A stretch of DNA of 18,785 bases from Promethearchaeia archaeon (GCA_046483985.1 JAWOCD010000068.1:1-18785), one strand, 5' to 3'. Positions 2,860 through 18,785 are shown, counted from the first letter of the stretch. Numbers and translations: made by a program. Notes: generated from the sequence alone by a model not told the origin.

Positions 2860-4371
2860 ATGGCTAATAAGAAAAAAAATGTGCTATTTCTAATGACGGA
2901 TCAGCACCGCGCTGATCATATGAGTTGTGCCGGCAATAAAGTTCTTAACACTCCCAATTTAGACCGCTTGGCTTCAGAAGGAGTGAGATTTACTAATGCG
3001 TATTGTGCCAATCCCATGTGCATGCCTAACCGTGCAAGCATCTTTACCGGCTGTTACCCAAATGTACATCATGTTCGAAGTAATGGAATTAATTTACCGC
3101 TGAATACAGAAACATTTGTAGAATCCATGCGAAAAAAAGGATTTATTACATCAAAAATCGGGAAACCGCATTTTCAATTCTGGATCCCTCCTTACAGTCG
3201 AAAGGATAAATCCTTAGAAGCAATCCATCATTGGATGGAAACACCCGAACAAGCAAAAGAGGAGTTTCCTTTTCCCTACTATGGTTTCACTGAATGTGAA
3301 ACTACCTTAGGGCATGGAGATCTTTGTGCGGGCCATTATTTAGATTGGTTAGAAGAGCGACGTCCCGGATCAAGGGAAAAAATGAGAGAAAATCTGAACA
3401 TTAATGAATTTTTTGGTGTGCTGGGAAGAGAAACGGAACTCTCAGTTGCCGATTTCCCCACCTCATATTGTCAAGAAAGAACTATTGCCTTCTTGGAAAG
3501 ATATGCAAAAGGAAAATACGGGGATAGTCCGTTTTTTTGCTGTTGTTCCATCCCTGACCCCCATCATCCCGTCACACCACCAGGAAAATATTATGATATG
3601 TACAAATTGGAAGATATAGAACTTCCCGAAACCTATAATCATATTGAAGAGCTCTATGAGCACCCCTTTTTAGGGCAATACATTAAGAATCCCGTATTTC
3701 GTGGGGCAATGCTTCGAGAATCCACAGAAGAAGAGGTGAGGGAGTTTATCCGATTAACTTACGGTTCAATATCGCTGGTTGATGATGCCATCGGAAATAT
3801 TTTAGCGGCCTTAGAAAAATTCGGATTAGCAGATGATACGATAGTGGTATATACCAGTGATCATGGAGACTTAATGGGAGATCACGGTATGCTTCTTAAG
3901 GGGCCATCTCCTTTTGACGGAATACTAAGAGTTCCTTTGATAATAAAAGCTCCTGGAGTCACATCGCCGGCTGTGACAGATTCATTGGCAAGTTCAATCG
4001 ATTTGTGTAAGACATTAACCAAACTGGCGGGATTACGAGAACGCCATCTTGACGATTTTGTGCAAGGCAAAGATTTAACTCCTGTATTAAAGGACCCCGA
4101 AAGGTCAGTACGGGATTATTGTTATATTGAAGAAGATGAGGAGGTTGGTCCTTTAGTTATACGGTTGAGACATCTTATTACAAAAAACTATAAAATAACT
4201 ACTTATGAAAGGATGGAAAATTTCGGAGATATATATGATCGACAAAACGACCCACATGAGCTTCATAACTTATGGGATGATGAAGAATTACGATTAAAGT
4301 TACTGCAAAAAATGCATCATGCAACCTTAAAAAGTCTTTCAAAGATTCCCGAACGGCAAGCCTCCAGCTGA
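2860..4371 (+). CDS. Cys-type (formylglycine-dependent, family S1) sulfatase, cytoplasmic
   Basis: NVLFLMTDQHR, signature CMPNRASIFTG (CxPxR), GKPH, PDPHHP, TSDHGD...KGP; no signal peptide. Confidence 0.93.
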   Translation: MANKKKNVLFLMTDQHRADHMSCAGNKVLNTPNLDRLASEGVRFTNAYCANPMCMPNRASIFTGCYPNVHHVRSNGINLPLNTETFVESMRKKGFITSKIGKPHFQFWIPPYSRKDKSLEAIHHWMETPEQAKEEFPFPYYGFTECETTLGHGDLCAGHYLDWLEERRPGSREKMRENLNINEFFGVLGRETELSVADFPTSYCQERTIAFLERYAKGKYGDSPFFCCCSIPDPHHPVTPPGKYYDMYKLEDIELPETYNHIEELYEHPFLGQYIKNPVFRGAMLRESTEEEVREFIRLTYGSISLVDDAIGNILAALEKFGLADDTIVVYTSDHGDLMGDHGMLLKGPSPFDGILRVPLIIKAPGVTSPAVTDSLASSIDLCKTLTKLAGLRERHLDDFVQGKDLTPVLKDPERSVRDYCYIEEDEEVGPLVIRLRHLITKNYKITTYERMENFGDIYDRQNDPHELHNLWDDEELRLKLLQKMHHATLKSLSKIPERQASS

Positions 4372-4429
4372 AGAAAAATATACAAATCAAACCTAAAACT
4401 TTAAAAATACTATAGTGATTATTACAAGA

Positions 4430-4594
4430 ATGAAAAAAATTAAAGAGGAAAGTTTAACGGAAGAAATAAAAAAGCTCGCCATAACCCATGGCGCAAACTT
4501 GGTGGGTATTTGCTCAGCAGAATCTCTCCAAGATAAATTTAATAGAAAAAGATTCAAATATAGAAAATCAAAAAAACAATGCAAAAGAAAATGA
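4430..4594 (+). pseudogene. Truncated N-terminus of a second QueG/RdhA-like gene
   Basis: My translation MKKIKEESLTEEIKKLAITHGANLVGICSAESLQDKFNRKRFKYRKSKKQCKRK* matches the start of 1781..2827 (SLNQEIETFLKEKGALKVGFATRESLE), then becomes K/R-rich with no similarity. The stop overlaps an ATG at 4591 (ATGA). Confidence 0.65.
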
Positions 4595-5694
4595 AGTCAA
4601 GTCCATATGATGTCATCATTGATAAGATGAAAGAATATCCTAATGATATCCCTCGGGACGAAGAAGGGAATGTTTCTGAAGCTTTTAAAGAATATATCAA
4701 GTTATTTTTTACCCCCGAGGAGGCTGAAATTGCTCAGCATTTAGAGATTATGCCCTTATCCGTGAGAAAGATTGCAGAAAGACTGGGTAAAGACCGAAAA
4801 GAAACAAGGCGAATTCTGAAAGACATGGCAGATAAGGGAATAATTCAAGATATTGGAGGATTTTCCTATTTTATTACAGTTGCGCATTTGCTTAATATAG
4901 GATTTAAATATTCTGAATCATTAAAGCGTTTGGGCAAGAAAGGGGCTGAATTGTACCAGAAATTTTTTATTGAAGAGAAATATTATAAACGTTATGAATC
5001 CTCTGATAAGGGGACCTCACTTACAAGAATAGTTCCAATTGATAAGGCAATAGACCATCAATCCATCATAACAAATGCCGAGGAAATCCATAAAGTAATT
5101 GATAATTGTTTGCCTCCCATTGTTGCTACGGATTGCCCTTGTAGGAAAAGAACCGAAACCTTAGGAATTCGGGAATGTAAGGATAAATATCCTATTGAAG
5201 AATCGTGCCTACAATTGGGTCCGTTTGGGAAATATTTTCTTGACAGAGGAGAGGGGACTGAGCTAACCCGTGAAGAAGCACACAGATTAGTAGATCAGCT
5301 TGCAAAGCTAGGGTTAATTTTTACCACGGAAAATGTTGTTCAAGCAAATCACCAAATTATATGCTGCTGTTGTGAATGTTGTTGTTCTTTATTACGCGGA
5401 ATGACGCGATTTTCTGATAAAAACGAATTTTGTACCGCCAAGTCCAATTATATTTCCAAGGTGGATGAAGATCTTTGTAAGGGATGCGGAATATGCGTCG
5501 AACGATGTGTCTTCAATGCAATTTCACTAAAAAACAAAAAAGCTAATGTGGACACAGACAAATGCTATGGATGCGGTTCATGTGCGGTCACTTGCCCCTC
5601 TGAGGCAATAAAACTCTATCGAAAAGAGAGGACTCAGATTCTTGATAATTTTAAAGAGCTTACCGACACAATATATGAAGAAAATAGGAATTAA
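4579..5694 (+). CDS. Poly-cysteine 4Fe-4S dicluster protein with N-terminal HTH-like region (start may be ATG 4591)
   Basis: FTPEEAEIA...LKDMADKGII N-region; CPCR, SCLQLG, ICCCCECCC; two C-terminal ferredoxin motifs CKGCGICVERC and CYGCGSCAVTCP. Confidence 0.88.
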   Translation: MQKKMKSSPYDVIIDKMKEYPNDIPRDEEGNVSEAFKEYIKLFFTPEEAEIAQHLEIMPLSVRKIAERLGKDRKETRRILKDMADKGIIQDIGGFSYFITVAHLLNIGFKYSESLKRLGKKGAELYQKFFIEEKYYKRYESSDKGTSLTRIVPIDKAIDHQSIITNAEEIHKVIDNCLPPIVATDCPCRKRTETLGIRECKDKYPIEESCLQLGPFGKYFLDRGEGTELTREEAHRLVDQLAKLGLIFTTENVVQANHQIICCCCECCCSLLRGMTRFSDKNEFCTAKSNYISKVDEDLCKGCGICVERCVFNAISLKNKKANVDTDKCYGCGSCAVTCPSEAIKLYRKERTQILDNFKELTDTIYEENRN

Positions 5695-5714
5695 ATAGTA
5701 AAAGAGAGGATAAA

Positions 5715-7217
5715 ATGACTGAACCTATGAATGTTATATTTATAATTACCGATCAACAACGAAGGGATCATCTCAGTTGCTATGGAAATCCCACGTTAAA
5801 AACTCCTAATATCGACAGTATTGCAGAAGATGGAGTCAGATTTGAGAATTATATATGTAATACCCCCATTTGTATGCCCAATCGAGCAAATTTTTTTACA
5901 GGATGTTATCCAAGCGTGCATGGTACAAGATCAAATGGCATTAATTTAGATCCCGAATTTCCCATCATCTCAGAGATCCTAAGACAGACAGGTTATTATA
6001 CTATTTCAATAGGTAAAAATCATTGTAATTTTTTTAGTCGCCCGTCAAAGCGAGGGGTTCATTCAGATGAAAATATTATTTCATGGTTACATGGAGATAT
6101 GAACTCTGATAAGTTAGATCTTCCATGGTACGGCTATGAGGAGGTACATATGACTGTGGGACACGGTGATTGGATGGCGGGGCACTATTCAGAATGGTTG
6201 GAAAAAAAGGGGTGGGATCAACACTCTTATTCAATTGAAAATCCCCTCTGCCTAAATGAATATTATTATGAAACGGAAATGCCCGAAGAATTATTTCCCA
6301 CAAATTACATAACTAAGAAAACGGTTGAATTTCTAGAAAATTATTCTTCCAGTGGACACGCAGATAAACCATTCTTCCTACATTGTTCGTTCCCAGATCC
6401 ACATCATCCTGTTTGTCCCCCAGGAAAATACAAGGATCTATATAGCCCAGATGATATTGAATTACCAGCTAATTTTGAGGATGGTGAAAAATTACTTAAT
6501 CATGGATTTCTTGGAGAATTACTAAAAAATCCTCGATTTCGTCAATTAATCCCTCAAAAAGTATCCAAAGAGGAGGCAAAAATGTTTACAGCGCTTACTT
6601 ATGGTTCAATTTCAATGATTGACGATGGGATTGGTAAGATTTTACATGCTCTGGAAAAATCCGGAATGACAGATAATACCATGGTCATTTTTACCAGTGA
6701 TCACGGAGATATGGGAGGGGACCATGGGCTTATCCTCAAGGGCCCTGCTCATTATCGCGGGATAATTAATATGCCCTTATTATGGAAGATTCCAGGGCTC
6801 ACAAAAAAGAGTACCTATGAATCCTTGATTTCCACTATTGATTTATCGAAAACAATCTTGAATCTTTTAAGGATTAAAGAAAAATATCAATCTCCCTACT
6901 TTCAAGGATATGATTTTACACCCATTTTTGAGAACCTTAATAAACGAATCAGAAAGCAAGTTCTTATTGAGCATGATGAGGAGATAGCTAAAGATTCCAT
7001 CATGCGTCTGAGAACTTTGGTCACCGATACCTATAGATTAACTATTTATGACGGGGAAAAAAATATTGGGGATCTATTCAATTATCGGGAGGATAATTTG
7101 GAAGTAAATAATCTTTGGGATAGAAATGATGAAACACGAGACAACTTAATTGAACGACTTCTTAGAGAAATAATTAAACTAAGACCTCGTCTGCCAGAAC
7201 GTGCCGCCTATAATTAA
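5715..7217 (+). CDS. Second Cys-type S1 sulfatase, paralogue of 2860..4371
   Basis: NVIFIITDQQR, CMPNRANFFTGCYP, RSNGINL, PDPHHPVCPPGKY, TSDHGD...LKGP; collinear with the first sulfatase. Confidence 0.93.
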   Translation: MTEPMNVIFIITDQQRRDHLSCYGNPTLKTPNIDSIAEDGVRFENYICNTPICMPNRANFFTGCYPSVHGTRSNGINLDPEFPIISEILRQTGYYTISIGKNHCNFFSRPSKRGVHSDENIISWLHGDMNSDKLDLPWYGYEEVHMTVGHGDWMAGHYSEWLEKKGWDQHSYSIENPLCLNEYYYETEMPEELFPTNYITKKTVEFLENYSSSGHADKPFFLHCSFPDPHHPVCPPGKYKDLYSPDDIELPANFEDGEKLLNHGFLGELLKNPRFRQLIPQKVSKEEAKMFTALTYGSISMIDDGIGKILHALEKSGMTDNTMVIFTSDHGDMGGDHGLILKGPAHYRGIINMPLLWKIPGLTKKSTYESLISTIDLSKTILNLLRIKEKYQSPYFQGYDFTPIFENLNKRIRKQVLIEHDEEIAKDSIMRLRTLVTDTYRLTIYDGEKNIGDLFNYREDNLEVNNLWDRNDETRDNLIERLLREIIKLRPRLPERAAYN

Positions 7218-9064: not shown

Positions 9065-10279
9065 ATGAAATCCCACAAAATAAACAAATATCTTACCGTC
9101 CGCTTGGAAGGCGGTAGGACGATGATTTATGTCAACGAAAAACCATTCCGCTCGTGTACCACCCTCATTCTGAATATCCCGGCGGATCAAGCGGAAGAAA
9201 CACACCAAATCAATTCCATTGACGAGGCTGCGGAGATCTACAGCGAAAGACTCGACTCGGGCAGATATGGCATCCCGCCGGAAACCGAGTTCTGGGCGCA
9301 TTGCTCCAACCTGCAAGCATGGGCGGAAAATGACTACGATACCCGCCTTCTCCACAGTAATATTGCCTTTCCGCTCCTAAAAAAGCTCGTGGAAGCCGGA
9401 GATAAAAAAGCACTCGCCGCCTATAAGGATGAGATTTTCAGCAGAGCCGAATATGGCCATATACCCACCATCAAATTTCTCATCTGCAACAAATACCTCG
9501 AATATCTCACCCGAGAAGAGCGGGTACAAATCTACGAGATGGTCCATCAATCCTTCAAGGAAGAGTTTACAAAAACAGCCACCATCAAAGATCCGCACCG
9601 ATTAGATCGTGAGGTCCACCAACTGATTACAAATGACCCGTCGCTTCCCAAACCGATGATTCAAGACTTCATTTTATCGCTCCCCGAGGAAGCCCGAACC
9701 AATCTGCTCATTTCAATTGAGTATATTCTCAGTAATCCTCCGGGTGCGGTAATATCCGACCATTTTTTCGAGGATCTCTATGCCACCCACGCCGTACATC
9801 TCGGACGACGCCCTCATTGGAAGAAAAATTGGAGGAAGTTCCTACAAAAATTGAAAGAAATGAACAAGTTTCTACCCTTCTCCATAACGATCAACAATCA
9901 GATATACAGAAGTAAAAACCAAGTTCTTGACTTATCGGATGCAGCCATAATGCGCCCAGACGAGCTGGACATCGAGCAATTAAAAGCCCTGGAAAAACTA
10001 CGCATCTTGAAGGTGCAAAACCAGAAACTCGCATCTTTCACCGGCCTGGAACCCATGAAACACCTTACGGAACTATACCTCGCCGACAACCAACTGAACG
10101 AGATTGACCTTAAGGCCCCATTAAAATATGTAAAATATTTAGACCTCAGCAATAACAATTTCACCGGCATTGACTCCTTGGAGCAATTTCCGGCACTCGA
10201 ACATCTTATCTTACAGGGTAATCCGCTGGATCATATTGACGGACTAAAAGAAAAAACGGGTTTATATATTTACTTATGA
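9065..10279 (+). CDS. LRR protein with conserved Lokiarchaeal-type N-terminal domain; C-terminal SDS22-like LRRs
   Basis: N-domain KINKYLTVRLEGGRTMIYVN...SIDE...EFWAHCSNLQAWAENDYDTRLLHSNIAFPLLKKL. About 4-5 22-residue LRRs (LTELYLADNQLNEID, VKYLDLSNNNFTGID, LEHLILQGNPLDHID). Confidence 0.88.
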   Translation: MKSHKINKYLTVRLEGGRTMIYVNEKPFRSCTTLILNIPADQAEETHQINSIDEAAEIYSERLDSGRYGIPPETEFWAHCSNLQAWAENDYDTRLLHSNIAFPLLKKLVEAGDKKALAAYKDEIFSRAEYGHIPTIKFLICNKYLEYLTREERVQIYEMVHQSFKEEFTKTATIKDPHRLDREVHQLITNDPSLPKPMIQDFILSLPEEARTNLLISIEYILSNPPGAVISDHFFEDLYATHAVHLGRRPHWKKNWRKFLQKLKEMNKFLPFSITINNQIYRSKNQVLDLSDAAIMRPDELDIEQLKALEKLRILKVQNQKLASFTGLEPMKHLTELYLADNQLNEIDLKAPLKYVKYLDLSNNNFTGIDSLEQFPALEHLILQGNPLDHIDGLKEKTGLYIYL

Positions 10280-10402
10280 GCCATTCTTGCACTCCATGGA
10301 TTTGATCCCCATTTCACGATTACTTTAATTAATCTTGCAATAAGATAATCCTGGTTGCCCACTCATCTTTTCGATGCTATAAACCCACAAATTTTAAATT
10401 AT

Positions 10403-10432
10403 TGAAATCTCTGAAATCTCTGAAATCTCTGA
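10403..10432 (+). repeat. Short tandem repeat (TGAAATCTC)x3.3
   Basis: tgaaatctc tgaaatctc tgaaatctc tga read directly. Confidence 0.85.
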
Positions 10433-10510
10433 CCCATTTAGGTCCCTATTGATGAGACTAATGATGAACATCTGAATTTAGAGATCAAGAAAGCACTTTA
10501 GCATAAAAAT

Positions 10511-10577
10511 TGTATTTTTCTTCCAACCGCCGCACTAAATCTCGCTCCTCGAGGAACACCATTACTGGGAGAAAAAA
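10511..10577 (-). pseudogene. Internal fragment of an ICMT/PEMT-family gene, paralogous to 18341..18407
   Basis: Ungapped match of 53/67 nt by my count. Translates FFLPVMVFLEERDLVRRLEEKY vs FYLPIMILVEERDLVRRFGKKY in the intact gene. Confidence 0.8.
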
Positions 10578-10784
10578 TCGATTTTATCACTTAGCCCTTT
10601 CATAAACTCATATATTAATGAATTCAGAAATATTAATTATTATTGACCTGGAGAATCCTTTTAAAAAAACAGAAATCATTAGATTATACTAATTTTTAAT
10701 AGTCCAATTGTTTTTATAATTATAGAGATAAATTTAAAAAGAGATAGATAGATATAAGTATCCAATTAATCTAAAGGAATAATA

Positions 10785-10985
10785 ATGTCTGCGTTCATTA
10801 ATCCAAAAGTATTGAAATGGGCTAGGATCAAAGCCGGGTATTCAATTGAGGAGGCGGCAAAATCGTATGTAAGTCCCGAAAAGTTAAGAAAAGCAGAAAA
10901 AGGGGAAGAACATCTTACATTCAAACAATTCAATCTCCTTAACGGAATAGCAAAAATTTTTTCAAAAGGAAAAAATCCATTTTAA
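10785..10985 (+). pseudogene. XRE-family HTH; probably the truncated N-terminus of an XRE-ImmA/IrrE metallopeptidase fusion
   Basis: INPKVLKWARIKAGYSIEEAAK...EKGEEHLTFKQ matches the INPxxLxWAR...ExG...T.xQ start of XRE-IrrE proteins. Similarity stops after TFKQ and no HExxH domain follows. Confidence 0.6.
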
Positions 10986-11165
10986 AAATATCCAAATAAC
11001 AATGCTAAATAACAAGATCCTTTGTCCCTAATTTTGTCAAGTTTGTTACCCCATAATTGCAGCTTAGTGATCTTAGCAAATAAGGCGTTTCGTAACAATT
11101 TAAAACAGAGTAAAATATATGAATTATAATAATAATTAAAAATTAAAAGAGAGTGAAATTAATTT

Positions 11166-11765
11166 ATGAATCGTGATGATTATTTAAAAATATATTTGGC
11201 ACTAAGAACGGCAGATCCAAGATATGCTACGGCTGCGATCGCAACTTTACGTTTAGATATGAATAGAAATTTAGGTGAGGAAATTCAGAAGCAGATAATA
11301 ACCGAGGGTAATTCTATTAGCATAAATAAAAACGATTTTGATAATATCCCCTTAGAAATCCAAAACGGTTACTTCTCGTACCTCATGATTGAGGGGGGAT
11401 TGGATCCCGAAAATCTAAATGCTGTCACTCATCTCCTTCGTGATATTTTCCTGCCAATTGATCAGGACGATGACGGGTCTGAGGACCAGTTAATTCAGAC
11501 TTACCAAGAGTATTTAGATGAAGAAGATTACAGCAATGCGAGAATAATTTCTAATAAACTTCTTGCGCGGGCACTTAGAAATCAAGACCAACCTCTTGCG
11601 AGAGATGCAATAAATATGACATTGGAGGCATTAAATCAATGGCCAAGGGCTAGAAATAATCGGGGATATGAATTCGAGCAAAATAATTGGATTAGAGATA
11701 ATATTCAAGACTTGATGCGTACAGTCGATGGAGCCACACAAATAATGGAAACAAGCATTGATTAA
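11166..11765 (+). CDS. Hypothetical acidic helical protein
   Basis: 199-aa ORF preceded by an AT-rich promoter-like region and GAGAGTGA; no motif I recognise. Confidence 0.7.
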   Translation: MNRDDYLKIYLALRTADPRYATAAIATLRLDMNRNLGEEIQKQIITEGNSISINKNDFDNIPLEIQNGYFSYLMIEGGLDPENLNAVTHLLRDIFLPIDQDDDGSEDQLIQTYQEYLDEEDYSNARIISNKLLARALRNQDQPLARDAINMTLEALNQWPRARNNRGYEFEQNNWIRDNIQDLMRTVDGATQIMETSID

Positions 11766-11891
11766 TTGGGTTTATATATGTTTGCATTATAGAGAGACCT
11801 TGTACTTTAATTCTATCATAAACCTTATCACCGACAATAAAGGAAAGCCCTGTAGGTCGAGTTTATATTCCTAAGACCAATTAAAAGAACC

Positions 11892-11992
11892 CTATCGACT
11901 TGGAGATTCCCTAAAAACCTTATATCATCCTACTTTTAATCTTTAATTTAAGCCATGTTAATGAAGAAGCTAAACCTTTTCTTAACTATTCT
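11892..11992. repeat. Diverged direct repeat, copy 1 (copy 2 at 17391..17491)
   Basis: Ungapped 74/101 nt by my count (ctatcgactt...aatttaagccatg...ttaacta.tct); weaker similarity continues to ~12124 vs ~17612. Confidence 0.8.
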
Positions 11993-12155
11993 ATTGTTTG
12001 GAGACTGTTAAATTAGAGAAGGATTATTTAGCATTTTTATGTTCTATTAAGATGCTAAAATTCGGAAATCTTATGATATTAACCACCCTCTTAATAAAGC
12101 AGAACCTTCACATAAGGTTTAATATTCCCTCCCACACGCGAAAGATTTATTATGT

Positions 12156-12275
12156 TTAACTCCAATTGCATAATATATAGCTTTTAACTAACTTTTTTAG
12201 CAAGGGAAAGGCAATATTCCTATGCAATATTCTTGTATCATAGTTATAATCGACCCACGCTTGAAGATTTGAACA
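12156..12275 (-). pseudogene. Start-less fragment of the conserved LRR-family N-domain core
   Basis: Minus-strand frame CSNLQAWVDYNYDTRILHRNIAFPLLKKLVK(SYILCNWS*); no ATG back to the in-frame stop at 12351-12353. Confidence 0.88.
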
Positions 12276-12276
12276 A

Positions 12277-12372
12277 TCTTTTGATATATTATATATAGTG
12301 TTTGAGTTTATTAATGTTTGGATTCCCGGGAGACGTTTTACACTACTCTTTCACTTACGATTAACATAAGAA
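12277..12372 (-). promoter_or_regulatory. Duplicated upstream/promoter region, copy 1 (copy 2 at 17241..17339)
   Basis: 12277-12324 vs 17241-17288 match at 45/48 nt (tcttttgat.tattata.at.gtgtttgagtttattaatgtttggatt); looser match continues (ggag.c.ttttacac...ataagaa). Confidence 0.8.
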
Positions 12373-12424
12373 GTTTTACTTAAGCAAGATGAGCCGCTCT
12401 AACACCCCAAGAGTTATAAGTGCC

Positions 12425-13210
12425 TTAGCCATCGTATGCCTCAAGAAACGCTCTAAAGATTTCCGCGGCTTGCCCTCTCAAAATTCTTGTCCCCCGTCCA
12501 AGCACGGTGGTATCAAACGGCCATTCAATCTGTTCTAAAATGTCTGGCAGAATTTCCCAATTCGTATTATCCGTGAACTGAAGCGCTTTTCGAAATAATC
12601 GACTCTCCGAAACACTTCCTGCCGCTATAACAGGCTTAAGATCGGTCCGTATGACGTGAAAATTATGAAGAATTCGCTCCGGAACGGCGTGGTAATCAAG
12701 GCTTTCTCCGCTGAACCGATAATCAAACACCTCTTCAATTATAAAATAGCCGACTAAAAACTTACCCAAGACCTTCCGTTGAATTGGTCGCGCCAGGGTC
12801 ATATAGAAGGCCAGCATATCATTCTTTCGTAATTCGGATAAGGTCTTTGCTTTATTATTAGAACCCTCTCCGTAGGTGCAAGTTATGAATTCGGGGTCGT
12901 AATGCGGGATATATGACCGGATCGGCGCGCCGAGATATATCCTATTTTCCAAAAAGTCCCCCAGTGTCGTGAGATTCGGATATTCTGGCCACTTTTCAAC
13001 CTCAATGTGCTCGTAGGTTCGTATATCATACTTGTTATTTATCAATCTTTTATGGACGTAGAGGATATTGCCCAGTTTCTTGACATCAGCTTGTTTCTTG
13101 AGTGAAAACTCTGGAATGGGAATATAGTGAAATCTCCCATCATCCATCACGGGGGAATATTGCCGTCCCGAAGAGGATTCGATTCCAATCGGAAATATGG
13201 CTACCTTCAT
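12425..13210 (-). CDS. Nmad3-like (nucleotide modification associated domain 3) protein
   Basis: SPVMDDGRFHYIPIPE, PHYDPEF..CTYGE, L.KNDMLAFY.TL, FLVGYFIIEEV and HNFH match the Nmad3 motif order (SP..DG.F..IPIPE / H.DP.F / TYG / L..GD.L.FY / GY / N.H). Confidence 0.75.
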   Translation of the reverse strand: MKVAIFPIGIESSSGRQYSPVMDDGRFHYIPIPEFSLKKQADVKKLGNILYVHKRLINNKYDIRTYEHIEVEKWPEYPNLTTLGDFLENRIYLGAPIRSYIPHYDPEFITCTYGEGSNNKAKTLSELRKNDMLAFYMTLARPIQRKVLGKFLVGYFIIEEVFDYRFSGESLDYHAVPERILHNFHVIRTDLKPVIAAGSVSESRLFRKALQFTDNTNWEILPDILEQIEWPFDTTVLGRGTRILRGQAAEIFRAFLEAYDG

Positions 13211-13249
13211 TGTCTTACCCTCGTGTTTCCGTTTATGTTATACCTTTTG

Positions 13250-14653
13250 TCATTTCTTTTCATTATTATCGGCCCCCTTTTTTTGCTGTTCGCGCCTTGC
13301 ATCTTGTCTCTGTGGGTGCCCTCCATTTTTAAAAAAACCTATGAGTGGATACATAGGATTGGTGAGTAAGAATTCCACGTCCTTGATCTTTGAGGTAAGG
13401 AATTGTTTCTTTTTGGAGCTTTCGAAGGTCCGTTCCCGTACTTGCGTATATAAACGTAATGCGTGCTCATAATGGATTTTTCCCTTTTCCAAGATCTCGC
13501 CGTATTCCTCCATTCTACCCCCTTGAGGACCTTCTCTCCCAAGTTCATAACAATCTGCCAGTGCATGATGAACTTCCGCGTGCTCCAAAGCGGGAAGGTC
13601 GCATTCTCCCTCATCTTGAAGAGCAAGCAATCGTTCCAGATACTCCCTGCTTTTCTCGTATTCCCCTAATTCATAATGCAAATACCCGAAGGTGCGCAAC
13701 CTGTCGACTTCGCATTCCGGACACAATGCCTCAGATAAAACCTTCCGTAACGGCGTCACCGTACCGGAAATCCGTTTTCTGATGTATTGCATCTTTTCTT
13801 TATAACACTCCGGTATGGCCTTCTGCTCAAATGAACGCACATAGAACAGATAAGACCTCATCAACGAATGCCGCCATTGAGCCTTGCCCTTCTTTTTTAA
13901 CTCCTTCGAGCTAATGCCCGCCGATAGCTTATCATAGGCTGCTGCTAAGGTTTGATAGATGCCAGCCCACCGCAGTTCGGAAAAGGTTATATCATGCTGT
14001 TCGCAGAAGTCAATTAAGTCAAGATAATATTCTACTGCTTTTAGGTATTTCCCTTCTTTCAACTTATAATATGCATAGCATTCCATTTTAAACCACCGCT
14101 TCTCGAACCCACGCTTTAATTTACACACTTCATCAATAAACCGAAATACATTCCTAAAATCCCCTTTCAGCTCAAAAAACCTTATTTTGGCTAAATAAAA
14201 ATCTTTTAAAATCGACTTATCGAGACGCATATCGTGTTTAGTGATCAATCGCTCCACTGTTTCCAAAAGATCTTCAACCTTCTCCAAGTCTGCGTTCTCA
14301 TCTAAATCTATCAAATTTATACAAATCCCCAAGTAACTCATTATGAGACCGGACCGATAACCATTTTCTCTATAAATCTCCAATCCCTCTCGGTAGAACC
14401 GAAGAGACTTAGGGAAATTTCCTATTTTATAATAAGCACGTCCTAGCAACTCATAAATTCGTCCTTGGATAAACCAGACGGGAATCTTTTCACCCCTGGA
14501 CTGCACATATTCGCCGTGTTTCCCACTATACGTTTTTAGCTCGCCAGATAGATAGGAAACTAACTCCTTTAATTTCCCTTGTGATAAATACTCGTCCATT
14601 TGAGCGGAGATTTCTTCTAACATGCCCAATTTTTTTTTTGTTTTCAAATTCAT
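13250..14653 (-). CDS. Tetratricopeptide-repeat protein
   Basis: TPR-like units IYELLGRAYYKIGNFPKSLRFYREGLEIY, YYKLKEGKYLKAVEYYLDLI, LRTFGYLHYELGEYEKSREYLERLLAL, VHHALADCY; 39 bp upstream of the Nmad3-like gene, same strand. Confidence 0.8.
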   Translation of the reverse strand: MNLKTKKKLGMLEEISAQMDEYLSQGKLKELVSYLSGELKTYSGKHGEYVQSRGEKIPVWFIQGRIYELLGRAYYKIGNFPKSLRFYREGLEIYRENGYRSGLIMSYLGICINLIDLDENADLEKVEDLLETVERLITKHDMRLDKSILKDFYLAKIRFFELKGDFRNVFRFIDEVCKLKRGFEKRWFKMECYAYYKLKEGKYLKAVEYYLDLIDFCEQHDITFSELRWAGIYQTLAAAYDKLSAGISSKELKKKGKAQWRHSLMRSYLFYVRSFEQKAIPECYKEKMQYIRKRISGTVTPLRKVLSEALCPECEVDRLRTFGYLHYELGEYEKSREYLERLLALQDEGECDLPALEHAEVHHALADCYELGREGPQGGRMEEYGEILEKGKIHYEHALRLYTQVRERTFESSKKKQFLTSKIKDVEFLLTNPMYPLIGFFKNGGHPQRQDARREQQKKGADNNEKK

Positions 14654-15084
14654 ATTTTCATATCCCTCTTGAAAAATTCTTGCCTTACATTATGTATTAA
14701 TCAACACGACTATAAAAATGTTTACCTACAAGAAAAACCCCTTTATTTTTCGAGAACATCAGAGAGATTGGAGAGAACCGTCCCGCCAGTCATTAACCAC
14801 GACTTTTACCCGGTAAAAAATTCCGGCTCAAGGAAGTGAACCGAAAATTCTTGTCTTCAGCAAGCCGATTCTATTAATATCCTTAGCTGAATCACACGCT
14901 GGGAGAAATGAAGAAAATCGATCGGGAAAAAATTCAGAGCGTGCACTCTCGAGCCCCCTCTTATTTACTATGGATTTTACAAAAATAAAAGTCATAGAAA
15001 AGTAGAAAAAATAAAAAGGGGTTATTTTTGGGTAAGTTGGTTGGGTTTTCAACCATGAACTTTGGATGCACCTTTCAAGAGAAC

Positions 15085-17211
15085 TCAGCCTTGAACTCTG
15101 CGAAAATGGCGGAATCTTCTCCTTCGAACTGACCGTGGTCGATGCCTAGCGTCCATATTCTGTAAATCTAAGCCGCTGAGGCCTTCTAAATTTTCGATGG
15201 ACTGGGGGATTGTTGAGATGTTATTATAGCCCAGTCGCAGAGAACGCAAAGAAGTCAATTTTGCTATGGATTCCGGAAGATTCGTCAGCTTATTATTCGC
15301 TAGGTCACATCGTCTAAGGTTTGTAAGGTCTCCAATTGAATCGGGAATGGATGTCAATTTATTATACCTCAAATATAGCCGATTGAGTTTCTTTACTGTA
15401 GTAATGGTGTTGGGTAGTATCGAGATTCTATTATATCCAAGAAACAATTTATGTAACGATGCTAGGTTACCCATCGATTTTGGTAATGCGGTGAGGTTAT
15501 TCTCATTGAGGTCAAGCAAATAAAGTGAACTACAATTCCCGATGGTTTCTGGAACTCTTTTCAAGTAATTCCTCTCTAGAAAGAGCTCATAAAGGGAGGT
15601 TAGCTTCCCTATTGAGGAGGGAAGGCTCTTTAATTTATTCTCTCCCACATCCAGCTGTTCAAGTCGTTTCAGGTTCCCGAGAGACTCCGGAAGTTTCACT
15701 AGTTTATTATTGGTCAAATTAAGCCTTTTGAGAGAGTGTAACTTACCGATAGAGTTTGGAAGACTCATCAATTTACAATCATTCAGTTCGAGGCTCACAA
15801 GTGTTGTTAATTGTGATATCGATTCTGGAAATTCGGAAATACTATTTCTGCTTACATCTAAGTGATGCAAGGATTGAAGGAATCCGATTGATTTAGGCAG
15901 ACGAGAGAGGCAATTATCTCTGAGATCCAAGCCGATGAGACATTCTAATTGTGATAGAGACTCCGGCAAGCAGATAATACGGTTATTGTTTAGTAACAGA
16001 TTTCTGAGTGAGGTAAGATTTCCGATAGACTCCGGTAACTCCGTGATGGTATTATCCATCAAATTGAGGCTGATGAGAGAACTGAGTGTTCCAAGGGACT
16101 CGGGAACCGTCGAGATATGATTATGTTTAAGGCATAATTCTCTAAGCGAGGTAAGCTGAAAAATGGAATCGGGAATCTCTGTCAATTGATTCCGTTCCAA
16201 TCTCAGCTCTTGAAGGCTGCTAAGTTTCCCAATCGAGTCCGGAAGGTCCTTTATCTCGCAGTTATAGAGCCCCAGTCCGACGATGGTACCATCTTCCACA
16301 ACAAAACCACACTGGGTATACCGAGAAATCTCAGATTGTAACCTCAATTTTTTACCGGTAAGCTTTTCAAGCTCGAAAACTACATTGATCTCTGCCTTGG
16401 AAAGCCCCAAGATATCAAATACCTTCCGTTTATATTTCTTGGAGAGAAAGGAAAAACATCCTTTTTCTAATCCAACATGGATAATATAAGCTCTGGGTTT
16501 TTTATCGGATAAGTAATCAAGGAGCAACTCTTGCAAAACCTCTTTAAAGGCATCGCTTGATTTTGTTTCCGACTGGAGTAACATTAAGATCAATTTTTCT
16601 TTGTCCATATCTTGCTTCATTAAATCGAGTTGATCGCGTAAAAGGTCTTGCGCTTTTTTGTTTCCCTTTACTGACCAATATCCCAAAAACGATATAAGCG
16701 CCTCTGAATTTTCTTCTCTTAACTTCTCTAAATCTAAAGATCCGAGGATGATATTGATCTGTTTTTTTTTTAAATAACCCAAGTACCCTTCATTTTCAAG
16801 AAAGCGCCGTACTATACGATTCCCACGCAGATAACGCTCCATGATCTCACGCCTGAACACCCGCTCTGCCTCTTTGCATCTCGCCTCCGTCAGCTCCTTA
16901 AGTAAAGGAAATGCTAGGTTCCTATGCAGCAGCTTGGTATCGTAGTTGTTCTCTACCCATGCTTGTAGATTCGAACAATGCCCCTTGAATTCCATTTCAG
17001 GAGAAATTTCAAGCTTTCGATATTCACTTGTTCGGTCTTGCTGCTCTATATCATCGATGGATCGTATCTCATCGTACTGTTCCAAGTTGTTTACATTTAG
17101 ATGAAATACGAGGTACTTGCATTGACGAAAAAATTTTCCATTCACATAGATATTCGTTTCTCCACTTTCCAATTTAACGGTAAGATACTCATTTATTTTA
17201 TATGTTTTCAT
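15085..17211 (-). CDS. LRR protein with the same conserved N-terminal domain and ~16-17 tandem 23-aa LRRs
   Basis: N-domain KINEYLTVKLESGETNIYVNG...EFKGHCSNLQAWVENNYDTKLLHRNLAFPLLKEL; LRR consensus LPxSIGxLxxLxxLxLxxNxLxx; Arg-rich C-terminal tail. Confidence 0.92.
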   Translation of the reverse strand: MKTYKINEYLTVKLESGETNIYVNGKFFRQCKYLVFHLNVNNLEQYDEIRSIDDIEQQDRTSEYRKLEISPEMEFKGHCSNLQAWVENNYDTKLLHRNLAFPLLKELTEARCKEAERVFRREIMERYLRGNRIVRRFLENEGYLGYLKKKQINIILGSLDLEKLREENSEALISFLGYWSVKGNKKAQDLLRDQLDLMKQDMDKEKLILMLLQSETKSSDAFKEVLQELLLDYLSDKKPRAYIIHVGLEKGCFSFLSKKYKRKVFDILGLSKAEINVVFELEKLTGKKLRLQSEISRYTQCGFVVEDGTIVGLGLYNCEIKDLPDSIGKLSSLQELRLERNQLTEIPDSIFQLTSLRELCLKHNHISTVPESLGTLSSLISLNLMDNTITELPESIGNLTSLRNLLLNNNRIICLPESLSQLECLIGLDLRDNCLSRLPKSIGFLQSLHHLDVSRNSISEFPESISQLTTLVSLELNDCKLMSLPNSIGKLHSLKRLNLTNNKLVKLPESLGNLKRLEQLDVGENKLKSLPSSIGKLTSLYELFLERNYLKRVPETIGNCSSLYLLDLNENNLTALPKSMGNLASLHKLFLGYNRISILPNTITTVKKLNRLYLRYNKLTSIPDSIGDLTNLRRCDLANNKLTNLPESIAKLTSLRSLRLGYNNISTIPQSIENLEGLSGLDLQNMDARHRPRSVRRRRFRHFRRVQG

Positions 17212-18272: not shown

Positions 18273-18785
18273 TCAATTGTTTTTCCTTTTCTTTTTATTG
18301 AACTTCGGGAAGAGTGCCCCCGTGTTCCTTTTATATTCCGTGTATTTTTTTCCGAACCGGCGCACTAAATCCCGTTCTTCGACAAGAATCATTATTGGGA
18401 GATAAAAAAGAACATAAACTACTAAAACAACGAATAGAAATAAAGAATTCACTAATAAAGCCAATGCGGGAAACATGGGAAATTCCCCTAAAGCTTGCGG
18501 GTGGCGAATATATCGATAAATCCCTCCGAATAATTCAGTATCGGGAGATGGGGAAGAAGATTCCGCTCCGGCGTCTTTCATTCCGAGAAACATGATGAGC
18601 CCGCCTATACTTAAAATAATAGCTCCAATCACCAAGCTTATCCACGCAGAAGGGAAAATTGAACAACTCAGAGAACGCACGGGAAACCACCACCATAAAA
18701 CAATATTTCCAAGACAAATAAACTCAAAAACCATAGCAACGGCCCGAAATTTACTACAAATATCCCATGCGCTTTTATCCCAAAA
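18273..18785 (-). CDS. Isoprenylcysteine carboxyl methyltransferase / PEMT-family membrane methyltransferase, 5'-partial
   Basis: GGIYRYIRHPQALG and EERDLVRRFGKKYTEYKRNTGALFPK motifs; the frame stays open past ATG 18734 to the window end. Confidence 0.88.
   Translation of the reverse strand, partial: FWDKSAWDICSKFRAVAMVFEFICLGNIVLWWWFPVRSLSCSIFPSAWISLVIGAIILSIGGLIMFLGMKDAGAESSSPSPDTELFGGIYRYIRHPQALGEFPMFPALALLVNSLFLFVVLVVYVLFYLPIMILVEERDLVRRFGKKYTEYKRNTGALFPKFNKKKRKNN

Follow-up and report, generated by a model that had tools for sequence, protein, structure and literature searches.

We analysed an 18,785-bp window of DNA from a Promethearchaeia archaeon (GCA_046483985.1, JAWOCD010000068.1:1-18785), which is an entire contig (C124) of a 4.06-Mb genome in 128 contigs. 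The window carries two intact genes, here called A and B, whose products begin with the same domain and then diverge into different helical middles and different arrays of leucine-rich repeats (LRRs). We refer to this domain as HCSN after its invariant motif. The two copies align in BLASTP over residues 1–152 of A and 1–151 of B with 72 of 153 positions identical (47%, E 2e-38), and beyond them only weak LRR-to-LRR matches connect the proteins; their helical middles display no mutual similarity by the same method. A preliminary description of the window, made from the sequence alone, had proposed two genes with a common N-domain of about 150 residues, LRR counts of about five and 16–17, and a third, fragmentary copy between them. 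These features were borne out by BLASTP, by the repeat periods and by translated and profile searches, respectively, and the consensus quoted there matches our alignment of the 12 full copies in the genome. Coordinates are collected in Table 1, where ORF denotes open reading frame, TPR tetratricopeptide repeat and Ubl a ubiquitin-like protein.

Table 1 Features of the window and of the contig of the same genome (G000) that carries a ubiquitin-like gene.
Feature	Contig	Position	Strand	Description
Gene A	window	9065..10279	+	Intact ORF, 404 aa: HCSN domain, helical middle, about five SDS22-like 22-aa LRRs
HCSN domain of gene A	window	9071..9517	+	Residues 3-151; from alignment of 12 copies; profile match E 7e-67
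LRR module of gene A	window	9911..10276	+	Residues about 283-404; Pfam and 22-residue period
Relic of third HCSN gene	window	12183..12287	-	35 codons, profile positions 77-111 only, E 1.5e-15
Nmad3 (nucleotide modification associated domain 3) gene	window	12425-13210	-	Directly upstream of HCSN relic
467-aa TPR protein	window	13250-14653	-	Precedes Nmad3 gene
Gene B	window	15085..17211	-	Intact ORF, 708 aa: HCSN domain, helical middle, 16-17 LRRs of 23 aa, basic tail
HCSN domain of gene B	window	16762..17205	-	Residues 3-150; profile match E 2e-68
LRR module of gene B	window	15142..16299	-	Residues about 305-690; Pfam and 23-residue period
84-aa Ubl gene	C70	3960-4214	-	Product ends QAGGI
65-aa coiled-coil ORF	C70	4424-4621	-	Proline-rich tail ending PEPFRF; adjoins Ubl gene
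457-aa winged-helix and zinc-ribbon protein	C70	4910-6283	+	Pfam confirms winged helix in a relative's homologue

Matches to Pfam LRR models and repeat periods of 22 and 23 residues identify both products as LRR proteins. In gene A the LRR_4/LRR_8 match spans residues 330–395 (LRR_4 E 4e-13), with three strict 22-residue repeats at 334, 356 and 378 and about two degenerate ones upstream. Gene B carries a long LRR_14/LRR_8 array (LRR_14 E 1.9e-58) of the LPxSIGxL type, with an exact period of 23 over residues 310–655 and an extension to approximately residue 678. Pfam matches nothing in residues 1–280 of gene A, and the first 280–300 residues of both products are blank; 130–155 residues separate the end of HCSN from the first LRR in each. 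The closest paralogue of gene B lies on contig C128 and is 66% identical within the domain. Short contigs from metatranscriptome libraries of salt lakes, generated in two studies, match gene A over 9088–9590 and 9919–10202 and gene B over 15120–15270 and 16495–17138 with no mismatches. This is consistent with transcription of both genes, in libraries of a kind that may also contain DNA. The interval of approximately 12,000–14,800, which is without such contigs, is uninformative either way.

Mean column identity of HCSN is 63% across the 12 full copies of the window genome, and the invariant residues include N5, C29, D51, H77, S79, N80 and W84 (gene A domain numbering). Over 350 domain instances, N7, W86 and Y91 are conserved in 100%, D53 and S81 in 99%, C31, H79, N82 and Q84 in 97%, C80 in 96% and H97 in 92%, with C80 and H97 each substituted in individual paralogues of the window genome. 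The near-invariant motif, EFWGHCSNLQAW..Y, is borne on helices that follow a beta meander. An AlphaFold2 model of the gene A domain based on a 57-row alignment is confident (predicted local distance difference test, pLDDT, 87; predicted template modelling score, pTM, 0.79) and consists of four short strands (residues 2–28), two short helices, a long helix (72–88) carrying EFWxHCSNLQAW, and then four to five helices. The last ~50 residues form a HEAT-like helical unit that recurs alone in some proteins. Many relatives give extra partial matches to profile positions ~100–151, and one paralogue of the window genome holds two extra copies of this unit. Outside the fixed residues the paralogues are only ~50% identical, and because so many polar residues are fixed against that background, we suggest a single ligand or reaction shared by the whole family. 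As judged from the alignments, a polar surface is conserved and not only a hydrophobic core.

HCSN is an uncatalogued domain, contained in no domain or structure database examined. Pfam searches of the 12 domains at E up to 10 gave scattered single matches only (E 0.02 or worse), a sequence profile search of the PDB reached E 0.38 at best, and neither NCBIfam nor PADLOC matched the domain. Foldseek comparison of the model with the PDB gave a best E of 2.3, and a library of viral structures yielded no match (best E 0.5). Among 48,161 chains compared with VIA-align, the best score was Z 4.3 (root-mean-square deviation 2.9, 71 aligned residues), a value below the level that VIA-align itself calls meaningful and reached against helical repeats with the C-terminal half only. 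The ESM Atlas returned unnamed Promethearchaeota clusters and no named cluster, and no description of the domain was found in the literature searched.

The family is large and phylogenetically narrow. A profile search of 1.84 billion cluster representatives detected 2,745 clusters (50% identity) at E ≤1e-3 and 1,771 at E ≤1e-30, and word-indexed searches returned >3,100 longer and 928 short proteins. All named hits of the latter were proteins from Asgard metagenome-assembled genomes, mostly Promethearchaeota or Lokiarchaeota, with some submitters' labels naming other Asgard groups. The window genome holds 12 full copies and one relic (tblastn and ORF extraction). HCSN was found in all 24 species-representative genomes of the window's own family, with 1–28 matches each, and was patchy in sister families of the same order (4 of 11, 1 of 1 and 4 of 4 genomes), being absent from two closed genomes of a sister family. 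In an even sample of the phylum it was present in 14 of 15 genomes of the window's family and in 0 of 105 genomes from 26 other families, two of these 105 coming from a sister family of the same order. Within the genomes sampled, HCSN is thus confined to one Asgard order.

Several genomes also contain short fragments of the domain and copies interrupted by stop codons. In one relative, three tandem HCSN genes of 349–363 residues each (G009 contig C159, 3988–7279, +) appear to be a recent local duplication. Because fragments, interrupted copies and tandem copies are all present, gene birth and death appear to shape the family. By tblastn the relic between genes A and B is a stretch of 32 residues at 12180–12275 (−) with identities of 75% and 72% to the two genes; it lies downstream of the Nmad3 gene, at a distance of 138 bp. 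The remainder of the domain is unrecognisable around it in all frames, and we therefore regard the third copy as a short relic. The cassette of Nmad3 and TPR genes may have taken the place of the larger part of the third HCSN gene.

The domains joined to HCSN are diverse. Its partners in the window genome are 22-residue LRRs, 23-residue LRRs, TPRs and, in a 776-residue protein on contig C96, a Ras-like GTPase in front with a TPR and then an LRR part behind. Other copies in this genome have N-terminal heads that are unrecognised or, by eye, zinc-finger-like, and a complete 200-residue ORF on an 82-kb contig consists of HCSN alone. Among 87 representatives of 50% clusters, 40 carry LRRs, seven TPRs and three a Ras domain, the others being without a Pfam domain. 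WD40 and further partners appear among the longer protein hits, and by our own count 13 to 15 of the best 120 of these hits are GTPase–HCSN fusions. Of 354 instances of the domain, 273 are at the N-terminus, 60 lie inside the protein and 21 are at the C-terminus; 19 proteins contain two full copies. A 423-residue protein of a relative (L065:8518–9789, +) has one gelsolin domain (E 2e-4) followed by HCSN, and its gene adjoins a paralogous Ubl gene. The Asgard gelsolin '1DGelX' has been described as one gelsolin domain and then a 'domain X', a predicted coiled coil (PMC7444086); our protein could not be equated with it, and that paper gives no sequence. The window genome's own gelsolin protein has a different tail and no HCSN.

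Much of the preliminary description is upheld by these results. Counting of paralogues and C-terminal partners with a profile, which it had recommended, revealed a multi-copy family with varied partners; the expansion stated for Lokiarchaeia is seen in the 12 copies here and up to 28 in relatives; the domain is indeed uncharacterised, and the suggested modelling and fold search ended in a confident model with no known fold relative. HCSN is neither an LRR cap nor a domain already characterised, and the family is neither low-copy nor invariant in its C-termini. Two of the claims stand in part. The domain is constant and shuffled among interchangeable modules, as supposed, but it is not always N-terminal, and the variable LRR sensors are found on about half of the proteins, the alternatives being TPR, WD40, Ras-like GTPase, gelsolin, zinc-finger heads or no partner. 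A capping module of LRRNT type is excluded by the distance between HCSN and the first LRR and by the occurrence of HCSN with TPR, WD40, GTPase and gelsolin parts and alone.

Our hypothesis is that HCSN acts as a constant docking head whose most plausible shared partner is the Ubl system, a reading that we favor tentatively and rate somewhat short of probable. The variable part (LRR, TPR, WD40, gelsolin or GTPase) would pick a target, and the HCSN head would tie the picked target to one common partner through its invariant polar surface, with a logic like that of F-box or SOCS-box substrate receptors. We infer the docking role from this combination of a fixed head and changing modules. The candidate for the shared partner is a highly conserved 84-residue Ubl ending in Gly-Gly, or its conjugation machinery, which we put forward as a tentative lead with modest support and not as a finding.

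Gene neighborhoods were examined for partners. All-against-all clustering around the 12 HCSN loci of the window genome revealed no recurrent neighbor, and around 69 HCSN loci (848 kb, 25 genomes) no neighbor exceeded what abundant families predict. Such absence of an operon partner fits a factor acting in trans. AAA/Cdc48-like genes recur at four of the 69 loci and actin genes at three, beside one orthologous HCSN gene in two loci and possibly a third. In three genera, actin and HCSN genes are separated by a few kb (G000 contig C101, ~109318–115526; L139; L143), with an AAA/Cdc48-like gene also present in two of the three loci; the HCSN gene on C101 is the most divergent paralogue of the window genome.

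The Ubl is 75–96% identical across the order, except for one 60% paralogue. At 14 of 39 sites its gene is accompanied by the ORF for the proline-tailed coiled coil; in all seven of these loci for which ORFs were listed, the winged-helix gene is present too. The window genome also encodes an E1-like protein on contig C99, next to a second Ubl. The HCSN profile was run over up to 8 kb on either side of the 39 Ubl sites. Within the family in which HCSN is always present, an HCSN gene was 0.2–4.3 kb away at 9 of 24 Ubl sites, against 0.72 expected from HCSN copy number and genome size, an approximately 12-fold enrichment (naive Poisson P 8e-8, kinship ignored). By our own count the adjacent pairs represent at least four gene arrangements in five genera. 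In three genera, paralogous Ubl genes precede an HCSN gene in the same orientation at a distance of 200–400 bp, and two further Ubl-like/HCSN pairs occur in one genome. In metagenomic proteins P0346 and P0369, the same ubiquitin-like domain is fused to Roadblock/LC7 (PF03259).

Co-folding against proteins of the ubiquitin system had been proposed in the preliminary description, and the one Ubl pair run gave weak support. The HCSN domain of gene A with the Ubl of the window genome scored 0.40, 0.15 and 0.35 (median 0.35; verdict 'weak support'), whereas the best of three controls scored 0.00. Between runs, at least 31% of contacts recur, and the partner has a pLDDT of 80 or more. In the benchmark for the mark applied, 58 of 80 solved complexes pass, as do 2 of 110 mismatched pairs; at scores of 0.60 or under it is reached by only seven of the 80 solved complexes and by both of the passing mismatches, and these benchmark counts hold only roughly here, with our own alignments supplied.

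Several observations weigh substantially against a Ubl partner and must temper the interpretation of this lead. The co-fold score lies in a range in which, according to the tool, most passes are false unless the pairing was likely beforehand. Collapsed to ~4 distinct arrangements, the adjacency has a P of ~0.006, and part of the enrichment is explained by gene order conserved among kin. Six of the nine adjacent HCSN genes belong to one subfamily that, judged by ORF starts, has a membrane anchor and then HCSN; its C-terminal part is an SDS22-like LRR in the one member scanned. No Ubl gene lies near any of the 69 unselected HCSN loci, and there is no HCSN gene on the window genome's own 7.3-kb Ubl contig. 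No Ubl–HCSN fusion was found among 33 longer Ubl-containing proteins, nor any HCSN in the same ORF at 12 further loci around Ubl-like matches, seven of which are inside ORFs of more than 600 residues. The Ubl is also present in sister genomes without HCSN, including two closed genomes; since nearly every genome of the order has it, comparing the phyletic distributions of Ubl and HCSN tells nothing. The data would also be compatible with a head in which the invariant Cys, His and Asp act in catalysis.

More boldly, HCSN might serve Lokiarchaeia as substrate receptor or ligase head in a modification system based on the ubiquitin-like protein, which we consider unlikely. Were it so, the unexplained expansion of LRR, TPR and WD40 proteins in these Asgard archaea would be a repertoire of target selectors for the 84-residue Gly-Gly protein, and archaea would have invented, in parallel to F-box or NEL ligases, a system of their own on a fold without known relatives.

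That HCSN is itself an enzyme, for example a Ubl ligase or protease acting through Cys31, His79 and Asp53 on substrates chosen by the repeats, strikes us as distinctly unlikely, even though the adjacency to Ubl genes and the weak co-fold apply equally to a catalytic head. Near-fixation of these three residues together with S81 and N82 over the 350 instances argues in its favor, and LRRs joined to a small novel catalytic domain have precedents in IpaH/SlrP and XopL, bacterial ligases of the LRR-NEL or XopL type. However, neither sequence nor fold matches a known ligase, protease or other enzyme (Pfam, PDB, Foldseek, VIA-align), the replacement of C80 and H97 in individual paralogues of the window genome is unfavorable, and a zinc site of structural function would account for the conserved Cys and His equally well.

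HCSN might instead bind or regulate Ras- or Rab-like GTPases as an effector, or as a head like a GTPase-activating protein or a guanine nucleotide exchange factor, while the LRR and TPR parts would serve as scaffolds in the manner of SHOC2 or ROCO proteins. The fusions to GTPases, both the 776-residue protein here and those among the longer hits, point this way, as do the 72 Ras-family matches in the window genome and the rank of Ras-like GTPases as the commonest class of neighbor (9 of 69 loci). The LPxSIGxL class of LRRs found in gene B is used by SHOC2, RSU1 and ROCO proteins. Against this, only three of the 87 cluster representatives carry a GTPase, and the 15 neighboring GTPase ORFs in the 848 kb are near the ~10 that we estimate from genomic density. 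The GTPase fusions also fit an adaptor head, as in Rab40–SOCS box and RhoBTB proteins, and a GTPase module appears rather improbable.

The domain could also be a folding cap or self-associating head of solenoids with no specific partner. Its C-terminal ~50 residues are a helical-repeat unit found in tandem in some proteins, two full copies are present in the 19 proteins mentioned above, the N-terminal position dominates, and the sole fold resemblances are the weak ones to helical repeats. So many invariant polar residues would be unusual for a mere cap, however, and partners that are not solenoids (GTPase, gelsolin), C-terminal copies, the stand-alone ORF and the long spacing between HCSN and the first LRR in genes A and B argue against a structural module, to which we assign a low probability.

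Weakest is the idea that HCSN serves as the effector or signaling head of NLR-like sensors against viruses or mobile elements: the variation of 1 to 28 copies between related genomes, the frequent relics and stop-interrupted copies, the three tandem copies, the confinement to one order, and the toxin-like and Nmad3 genes of the window would suit a conflict system, but no switch NTPase, of STAND type or other, is found in genes A and B (Pfam), the viral structure library and PADLOC gave no match, and no nuclease, toxin or other effector recurs as a neighbor at the 12 and the 69 loci, making this very unlikely. Membership in the NLR/STAND sensors, to whose logic the preliminary description had likened the family, is excluded for both genes, which in Pfam searches are without a P-loop NTPase of the NACHT/NB-ARC type. 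The same description had seen a region full of toxin–antitoxin and defence relics. A PADLOC scan of 10 window ORFs, genes A and B among them, had no hits, and the genes of this sort are limited to the Nmad3 gene and a 125-residue ORF (153–530, +) that matches the TumE toxin family (PF20126, E 1.8e-17).

Other genes of the window lie outside the HCSN family. Two sulfatase genes encoding 503 and 500 residues (2860–7217, +) flank a gene for a 371-residue protein with a winged-helix/MarR-like head and two 4Fe-4S ferredoxin motifs. A 66-residue ORF (10785–10985, +) in the AT-rich gap downstream of gene A resembles, by eye, a remnant of an XRE-type helix-turn-helix protein, for which PADLOC gave no match. 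Near the end of the window, 18273–18734 (−) encodes a 153-residue membrane methyltransferase of the PEMT/ICMT family; in eukaryotes, enzymes of this class methylate small GTPases at prenylated cysteines.

According to a 2026 survey, LRR proteins are enriched in Asgard archaea as they are in eukaryotes, yet are annotated only as 'LRR' with function unresolved. About half of the sampled HCSN proteins carry LRRs, and in one Lokiarchaeial order HCSN offers a single experimental handle on this network: identifying the partner of the head would give context to many orphan proteins at once. Should that partner be the Ubl, the family would represent an independent archaeal solution to substrate targeting. 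The restriction to one order in the sampled genomes means that the family has little direct to say about the ancestor of eukaryotes, and its function is one that we infer.

HCSN shares features with several known systems, among them modular adaptors. ROCO proteins (LRR-Roc-COR) also combine LPxSIGxL LRRs with a Ras-like GTPase, as some HCSN members such as the C96 protein do; unlike them, the order there is GTPase–HCSN–TPR–LRR with no COR domain recognised by Pfam, and a GTPase is missing from most members, genes A and B among them. ROCO membership is excluded by the absence of Roc and COR from genes A and B (Pfam); COR is not among the 25 families listed of the 37 matched in relatives, and Roc-like GTPases occur in a minority. 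HEAT/ARM alpha-solenoids resemble the last ~50 residues, a helix-turn-helix unit that is tandem in some members, whereas nothing in them corresponds to the beta meander or the HCSN helix and the matches are weak and limited to the C-terminal half.

Bacterial LRR E3 ligases (IpaH/SspH/SlrP with NEL; XopL) likewise join LRRs to a lineage-specific, non-RING domain with a conserved Cys. Their NEL and XL-box domains are C-terminal, unrelated in sequence and found in secreted effectors, whereas HCSN is N-terminal here and apparently cytoplasmic. The LRRs of gene B score against the NCBIfam models of SlrP (111 bits, cut-off 1113), SspH2 (37 bits, cut-off 1243), XopL and XopAE, in all cases below the curated cut-offs and over LRR residues only. 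With matches of this kind and no domain after the LRRs, membership in the NEL ligases is rejected.

The preliminary description had compared the family with F-box/LRR adaptors, which holds as an analogy and fails as family membership on sequence. No F-box model (a motif of ~48 residues) matched the 12 domains or the whole proteins at E up to 10, and fold searches with the HCSN model gave no clear match of any kind. HCSN is ~3 times larger than an F-box and begins with a beta meander; it has no sequence match to SOCS-box or BTB domains either, is limited to one archaeal order, and its partner binding is putative. The likeness is one of architecture: as in F-box proteins with LRRs (FBXL) or WD40 repeats (FBXW) and in SOCS-box and BTB adaptors, a small, constant and usually N-terminal domain is combined with interchangeable modules in a large multi-copy family, sometimes with a small GTPase as in Rab40 and RhoBTB. 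The genomic link of HCSN to a ubiquitin-like protein points in the same direction.

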